NCBI RefSeq assembly: GCF_003334785.1
Contig: NZ_QOWV01000002.1
Length of the DNA: 64,000 bases
Direction: 5' to 3' (one strand)
Origin: Escherichia coli
Lineage (GTDB): Bacteria; Pseudomonadota; Gammaproteobacteria; Enterobacterales; Enterobacteriaceae
The translations under genes were made by a program, and so were the position numbers. Within the stretch, counting starts at the first letter, position 1. Each line of letters begins with the position of its first letter. Of this stretch, positions 378-497 are shown in pieces. The notes below the pieces were generated by a model. It did no database searches, was not told the DNA's origin, and saw nothing but the letters and a program-made list of their open reading frames with translations.

Positions 378-393
378 ACGCAAACGTGTGCGT
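378..393. promoter_or_regulatory. PurR-box-like 16-bp near-palindrome upstream of purC
   Basis: acgcaaacgtgtgcgt, 14/16 match to the pur operator palindrome ACGCAAACGTTTGCGT. Confidence 0.6.
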
Positions 394-440
394 CTGCAGG
401 AAAACGCGATTTTAGCGGTAATTCGCACGAAATTTGTTTG

Positions 441-497
441 TCGGACGTAGTTCGGATAAGGCGTTCACGCCGCATCCGACAAAACATCCGGCACACC
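441..497. repeat. REP (repetitive extragenic palindromic) element between bamC and purC
   Basis: ggataaggcgttcacgccgcatccg core typical of E. coli REP. Confidence 0.75.

Follow-up and report, generated by a model that had tools for sequence, protein, structure and literature searches.

The window, by which we mean the whole 64-kb stretch of Escherichia coli DNA that was analysed, opens inside the 3' part of bamC and continues through a spacer into purC, which is followed by ypfJ and tmcA. Over its first 1.3 kb, the window matches K-12-type strains of E. coli with 100% identity, and the MG1655 counterpart is the reverse complement near 2.597 Mb. A sequence-only reading of the same DNA had given the length of the bamC-purC spacer as 212 bp and had arranged in it, in this order, a bamC terminator, a palindrome resembling a PurR box and a REP element, with the purC ATG beyond them. 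The spacer indeed extends over 212 bp (335-546), from the bamC stop TAA at 332-334 to the ATG at 547, and all four landmarks were found at or near the places assigned to them (Table 1). The terminator has the make-up of an intrinsic (Rho-independent) one, with a G+C-rich hairpin and a T-run directly past the stop codon. Both the hairpin and the T-run are kept in 21 species, and the two arms of the hairpin change with pairing retained, as judged by eye from the alignment.

Table 1 Features of the bamC-purC region, with positions counted in the window
Feature	Position	Strand	Description and basis
bamC 3' end	1..334	+	CDS enters from the window edge; stop TAA 332-334; ORF list and RefSeq annotation of identical E. 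coli sequences
bamC intrinsic terminator	341..367	+	9-bp G+C-rich stem 341-362 (6 GC pairs), TTTTTT 362-367; terminator scan
purC extended -10 promoter (TGaTATGAT)	369..377	+	TG 369-370 (-15/-14), TATGAT 372-377 (-12 to -7); read against the published start site
PurR operator (pur box) ACGCAAACGTGTGCGT	378..393		-6 to +10 of purC; 15/16 to consensus; motif of the PurR ChIP-chip peak
purC transcription start site (+1, A)	384	+	Kim et al. 2012, supplementary file 2; promoter 51-mer = window 334-384, ends ...TATGATACGCAAA
purC 5'UTR, 163 nt	384..546	+	Start site and annotated ATG
Left direct repeat (DR-L)	397..428	+	Diverged copy of an ancestral leader segment; local alignment with 500-531
REP-bearing inserted core, 71 nt	429..499	+	Multi-species alignment; absent in Citrobacter, Enterobacter, Leclercia, Phytobacter, Pluralibacter and others
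Extended RNA hairpin (predicted)	439..493	+	Outer 7-bp stem 439-445/487-493 around the REP stem-loop; ~+56 to +110; RNAfold
REP core (Y-type palindromic unit)	447..480	-	31/34 to consensus; inverted repeat 452-464/467-479; part of REP181
Right direct repeat (DR-R)	500..531	+	Keeps the ancestral sequence adjoining the Shine-Dalgarno; invariant within Escherichia
Shine-Dalgarno AGGAG	535..539	+	7 nt 5' of the ATG; (c/t)(c/t)GGAGT conserved in all aligned species
purC CDS (SAICAR synthetase, 237 aa)	547..1260	+	ORF list, RefSeq annotation, PF01259

Among ten further assemblies with an identical PurC protein, nine retain the 212-bp spacer and one has an IS200-like insertion. In GCA_031628795.1 (L096:1-515), a 152-aa Y1_Tnp gene (PF01797, IS200-like) lies between bamC and purC, and homology to the window restarts at 362; consequently, purC is left there with only the T-run, the extended -10 and the pur box. 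We also noticed a TTG ORF of 35 codons at 434-541, which covers the REP and whose TGA overlaps the Shine-Dalgarno region of purC. This ORF is probably a chance occurrence, since it has no Shine-Dalgarno and lies in non-conserved sequence.

Genome-wide 5'-RACE, in one high-throughput data set, has reported a single transcription start site for purC (NC_000913.2 2,595,803, minus strand; 24 reads), with a 5'UTR of 163 nt and a promoter 51-mer ending in ...CTGATATGATACGCAAA (Kim et al. 2012, PMC3415461). This +1 maps to 384, the seventh base of the pur box. Read against it, the promoter is of the σ70 extended -10 kind, with a TGn directly 5' of the -10 hexamer and the start site at 384 within the 6-8 nt downstream expected for such promoters. 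We could not find any recognisable match to a -35 element at the purC promoter, and it is for this reason that a consensus promoter scan of 250-650 returned no canonical two-hexamer promoter. The 3' arm of the bamC terminator hairpin and the T-run sit where the -35 element and the spacer of the purC promoter would be. The promoter appears to rely on the extended -10 TGaTATGAT. The arrangement of terminator, -10 element and operator is common to several genera. In one assembly (L093, GCA_051775605.1), the equivalent of window position 373 carries A373G, which turns the -10 hexamer TATGAT into TGTGAT at its normally critical second position; this could be a genuine promoter-down allele, or else an error in sequencing. 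A literature search for the purC promoter returned nothing on E. coli. In the portions covered here, the Cappable-seq data contain no entry where the purC start would be expected, and the files of Kim et al. 2012 list no purC start site for K. pneumoniae.

The extended -10 is followed without a gap by the palindrome acgcaaacgtgtgcgt at 378-393, which matches the PurR consensus ACGCAAACGTTTGCGT at 15 of 16 positions, with one mismatch. It is a 16-bp imperfect palindrome with a central CG at 385-386, and it is the sole site with three or fewer mismatches to the consensus in the 64-kb window. By our own arithmetic, ~0.0015 sites with at most one mismatch are expected by chance on both strands of 64 kb. 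In a ChIP-chip study, PurR gave a peak at purC whose motif, ACGCACACGTTTGCGT, lies at 2,595,794-2,595,809 of U00096.2, and its occupancy there was described as strongly adenine-dependent in vivo (Cho et al. 2011, PMC3159470). The motif is the reverse complement of window 378-393, the interval 2595794-2595809 mapping to 393-378. The proposal that the palindrome serves as the purC operator is thus borne out by the published peak, and the palindrome is the already known PurR operator of purC. In over 25 species representatives of the Enterobacteriaceae, the identical box, or its reverse complement, directly follows the bamC terminator.

The purC box is similar to the pur boxes of purF, purMN, purL, purHD, purT and other genes, which are also 16-bp imperfect palindromes with a central CG. 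As with the pur boxes of the E. coli pur regulon in general, it belongs to the promoter region of a gene for purine biosynthesis, is occupied by PurR and responds to adenine (PMC3159470). When compared with the other operators of the regulon, which are bound by PurR, a member of the LacI/GalR family, nothing essential differs, and purC is a member of the set. Specific to purC is that the box covers the start site and directly adjoins the extended -10. PurR bound to 378-393 together with its corepressor (hypoxanthine or guanine) would therefore block the access of RNA polymerase to the start site and thereby repress purC; here PurR binding and the start site are published, and we infer the occlusion from the geometry of the two.

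Downstream of the operator, the REP core GTCGGATGCGGCGTGAACGCCTTATCCGAACTAC (447-480, minus strand) has three mismatches to the Y-type consensus and retains the terminal CTAC, and its arms (452-464/467-479) are 85% complementary. The window contains six REP copies including the one at purC, against 0 expected by chance, and one of them is an exact Y-type consensus (41812-41845). The other Y-type copies are located at 5154-5187, 29893-29926, 29993-30026 and 52807-52840, and the two at 29.9-30.0 kb (29893-29926 and 29993-30026) form a pair 100 nt apart. The purC copy is catalogued as REP181, a tandem bamC/purC REP at U00096.3 2597674-2597719 (supplementary table of bioRxiv 10.64898/2026.03.23.713779), and the catalogued interval maps to window 446-491. 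REP181 has no annotation in the RefSeq record of this region, and Rfam gave only a sub-threshold match, to the REP-derived family naRNA4, at 450-494. The REP had been read as spanning 441-497; this stands in that the core with 31 of 34 consensus positions lies within it and the wider span approximates the predicted hairpin at 439-493. A search of the literature for purC together with repetitive extragenic palindromic elements found nothing relevant, and purC is mentioned neither in the RepRanger paper nor in its supplement.

With transcription starting at 384, the REP core occupies +64 to +97 of the 163-nt 5'UTR, where the mRNA carries the complement of the consensus strand, and it ends 54 nt 5' of the Shine-Dalgarno (535-539). 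The suggestion of a REP inside the purC leader, between operator and start codon, therefore holds. That this is an unusual position for a REP holds less well, since ~40% of E. coli REPs sit between tandem genes and REP181 is itself catalogued as such (bioRxiv 10.64898/2026.03.23.713779). An intergenic tandem position is common for REPs; to have the promoter of the downstream gene 5' of the REP is less so. REP181 shares with the Y-type REP/PU family the imperfect palindrome of ~34 nt, the CTAC end, the extragenic location, the many dispersed copies and the position between tandem genes. In contrast to the BIME clusters of this family, it is a single degenerate unit with three mismatches, in which T451 of K-12 loses one base pair. 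It differs from REPs in 3'UTRs or intercistronic regions in that it is downstream of purC's own promoter and hence in a 5'UTR, and it differs from the family also in being flanked by a target duplication of ~32 nt. An in vitro Rho-binding peak overlaps REP181 and is labelled '5_UTR' relative to purC, on the antisense strand (bioRxiv 10.64898/2026.03.23.713779). This peak is found with and without NusG at U00096.3 2597592-2597725 (+ strand), and the overlapped REP181 interval is the minus strand of window 446-491. A scan of the minus strand also showed a weak terminator-like hairpin at 502..485, followed by TTTTGT.

The leader that carries REP181 is longer than that of the relatives. We compared 80 species representatives fetched via PurC, a set to which Salmonella, Klebsiella and E. 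fergusonii do not belong. From the box to the ATG there are 152-154 nt in E. coli, in a divergent representative labelled E. coli (L003) and in E. albertii; in Citrobacter, Enterobacter, Leclercia, Pseudocitrobacter, Phytobacter, Pluralibacter and others there are 49-60 nt. In the multi-species alignment, the difference appears as one block of ~103 nt that is limited to Escherichia. Two segments of this region resemble each other, DR-L and DR-R, and their local alignment has a score of 24, a value that 3-4 of 2000 dinucleotide shuffles also attained; for the direct repeats of L003 the score is 31, which none of 2000 shuffles attained. Each of the two (397-428 and 500-531) matches the single-copy leader segment of Citrobacter from end to end, which indicates that the insertion consists of the 71-nt core plus a target duplication of ~32 nt. 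To judge from these alignments, the repeats look like a long target duplication made at the time of insertion. To our knowledge, a target duplication of ~32 nt is not a described feature of REP insertions.

The unique flanks of the REP (394-446 and 481-530) occur once each in 5,426 of 5,426 complete E. coli genomes, which means that E. coli as a species is fixed for the insertion. A larger mobile unit around the REP was considered and rejected, because these flanks are single-copy in every E. coli genome. Only the REP part of ~35 nt recurs elsewhere, at a median of 6 places per genome by megablast. Neither E. albertii nor any of the E. coli genomes examined has lost the insertion, although the direct repeats around it could mediate its deletion; this is compatible with some selective value. 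Its presence in E. albertii and its absence in Citrobacter and Pseudescherichia would bracket its age, which is only bounded in this way.

The inserted segment and its surroundings differ greatly in variability. Among nine Escherichia sequences, 32 of 115 columns are variable in 394-508, as opposed to 1 of 95 in the flanking non-coding segments that contain the terminator, promoter and operator upstream and the ribosome-binding region downstream (Fisher p = 1e-8). Between E. coli and E. albertii, 17 of 106 sites differ in 394-499 (0.16), close to the four-fold degenerate sites of purC (19/107; 0.18), while the promoter/operator segment has 1 difference in 57 (0.018) and the segment 500-546, which comprises DR-R and the ribosome-binding region, has 0 in 47. 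The REP core by itself shows 2/34 differences to E. albertii, which is below the synonymous rate, and 4/34 to L003, which is above the synonymous rate of 0.054, and both of these are small samples. This pattern suggests that the REP-bearing insert is a near-neutral passenger drifting at approximately the neutral rate.

The REP hairpin is predicted to have a folding energy of -13 to -17 kcal/mol in eight of the nine Escherichia sequences. The core hairpin is at ~-15 kcal/mol and the extended form at -27 kcal/mol, both by prediction. Several changes in the REP stem keep the pairing, for example C477T, which gives a G·U pair; the outer stem (439-445/487-493) is lost in E. albertii and L003. In most other strains, G451 forms a G-C pair, which is lost with the K-12-type allele T451. 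Two substitutions in strain CX12, G455A and G469A, break the REP stem and reduce the core hairpin from ~-15 to -3 kcal/mol; G455A is also present in another assembly (L086 and L091 are the loci noted at 455/469). The probability that the Shine-Dalgarno is unpaired was predicted as 0.45 with the insert and as 0.45-0.46 in two reconstructed insert-free leaders; sequestration of the Shine-Dalgarno by the REP was rejected because its predicted accessibility is unaltered by the insert. The fold of the whole leader is unremarkable (z = -1.6), and no riboswitch, attenuator or leader family reaches the Rfam threshold in the purC leader. A structured cis-regulatory leader RNA was rejected on these two grounds and because the structured part is missing in relatives.

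From these observations, the locus is probably best described as the known purC control region with REP181 as a passenger in the leader. Transcription would initiate from the extended -10 TGaTATGAT adjoining the bamC terminator, with its start at 384, and REP181 would be transcribed as a stable, self-contained stem-loop at ~+56 to +110 of the 163-nt leader. In the ancestor, the insertion of ~103 nt would have entered the only unconstrained part of a leader of ~60 nt, between the operator/start site and the ribosome-binding region, and would have left both of these modules intact; it would then have been fixed and drifted roughly neutrally. An effect of the REP on the stability or translation of purC mRNA had also been put forward. 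We found no evidence for one: the insert diverges at approximately the synonymous rate, and the predicted accessibility of the Shine-Dalgarno and the AUG is the same with and without it. The effect of REP181 on purC regulation is most likely small or nil, and it is for this reason that we read it as a passenger. There is room for a modest post-transcriptional role, because the insertion is universally retained despite the flanking repeats and the hairpin is mostly intact. The finding, though real, is an ordinary one, as publications or catalogues already cover the operator, the start site and the REP.

A stronger form of such a role, in which the REP181 hairpin is an Escherichia-specific functional element of the purC leader that acts as a processing or stability determinant or as a weak Rho-dependent attenuator, seems rather unlikely to us. 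The REP does lie inside the purC transcript, the predicted hairpin is stable (-15 for the core, -27 for the extended form) and retained in most strains, and the insertion is fixed in 5,426/5,426 genomes, but the divergence of the insert is close to the synonymous rate, E. albertii and L003 do not keep the outer stem, and natural variants disrupt the stem. The predicted accessibility of the Shine-Dalgarno, the same with and without the insert, argues in the same direction. Moreover, a hairpin that begins only at +56 would be too distant from the 5' terminus to stabilise the mRNA there. REP325 shows that REPs can be partial Rho-dependent terminators and decay barriers; however, REP fragments of 2-4 hairpins had no detectable Rho dependence (bioRxiv 10.64898/2026.03.23.713779), REP181 is a single unit, and the in vitro Rho-binding peak is antisense to purC. 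REP325, which is a partial Rho-dependent terminator and mRNA stabiliser in the yjdMN operon, is like REP181 in being transcribed in mRNA between co-oriented genes, but it consists of 12 hairpins in an operon without an internal promoter, whereas REP181 forms one hairpin 3' of purC's own promoter. In addition, purC is absent from the portion covered here of the supplementary files on 3'-end mapping in 5'UTRs (Adams 2021, PMC7815308).

The other two alternatives detach the REP from purC. It might serve the dapA-bamC transcript, either as a 3' decay barrier or as a back-up stop for terminator read-through, and its position in the purC leader would then be incidental. We consider this improbable: bamC already has a strong, conserved intrinsic terminator, no REP was found in any non-Escherichia relative examined, and the segment drifts near-neutrally, even though the two genes are in tandem and the REP follows the bamC stop at 113 nt and its terminator at 80 nt. 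REP-dependent ribosome stalling at stop codons reportedly has a window of 15 nt, and 113 nt is far outside it. It is hardly credible, finally, that the REP is located between promoter elements of purC, as the earlier reading had allowed, or that the main purC promoter is downstream of it and the REP outside the mRNA. The -10 hexamer at 372-377 and the TG at 369-370 lie 5' of the operator and adjoin it, and this contiguous block is conserved in genera that have no REP. The region 3' of the REP duplicates the ancestral leader and not a promoter. With no two-hexamer promoter in 250-650, the sequence by itself leaves the promoter unfixed, but the only mapped start site of purC is at 384, 5' of the REP, which contradicts a start downstream of the REP, the outcome named in advance as the one that would place the element outside the transcript.

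Thus, we retain the reading of REP181 as a passenger in the purC leader. It probably has little consequence for purC regulation, and from its evolution the insertion looks neutral. The direct repeats of ~32 nt are the only part that is possibly worth more work; should similar repeats flank other lineage-specific REPs, they would limit the possible models of REP spread. It is quite unlikely that the REP181 hairpin provides lineage-specific post-transcriptional control of purC and that, separately, the duplication of ~32 nt is the footprint of an undescribed mechanism of single-REP insertion.

The locus also provides an example of modular constraint, in which the operator/start-site block and the ribosome-binding block stay frozen and mobile repeats are freely accepted in the stretch that separates the two. 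In Serratia plymuthica, the purC leader (L065:1330-1460) contains a dispersed repeat of ~125 nt, found at a median of 12 places per E. coli genome with 77-80% identity, which we take to resemble ERIC/IRU. Like REP181, it is a small dispersed repeat between the pur box and the Shine-Dalgarno, but it is of another repeat family and stems from an independent event in a different genus. Unrelated extra leader sequence is also present in Kluyvera (L018; 114 nt) and Providencia (L046 and L060; 224-242 nt), where the leader was independently expanded.
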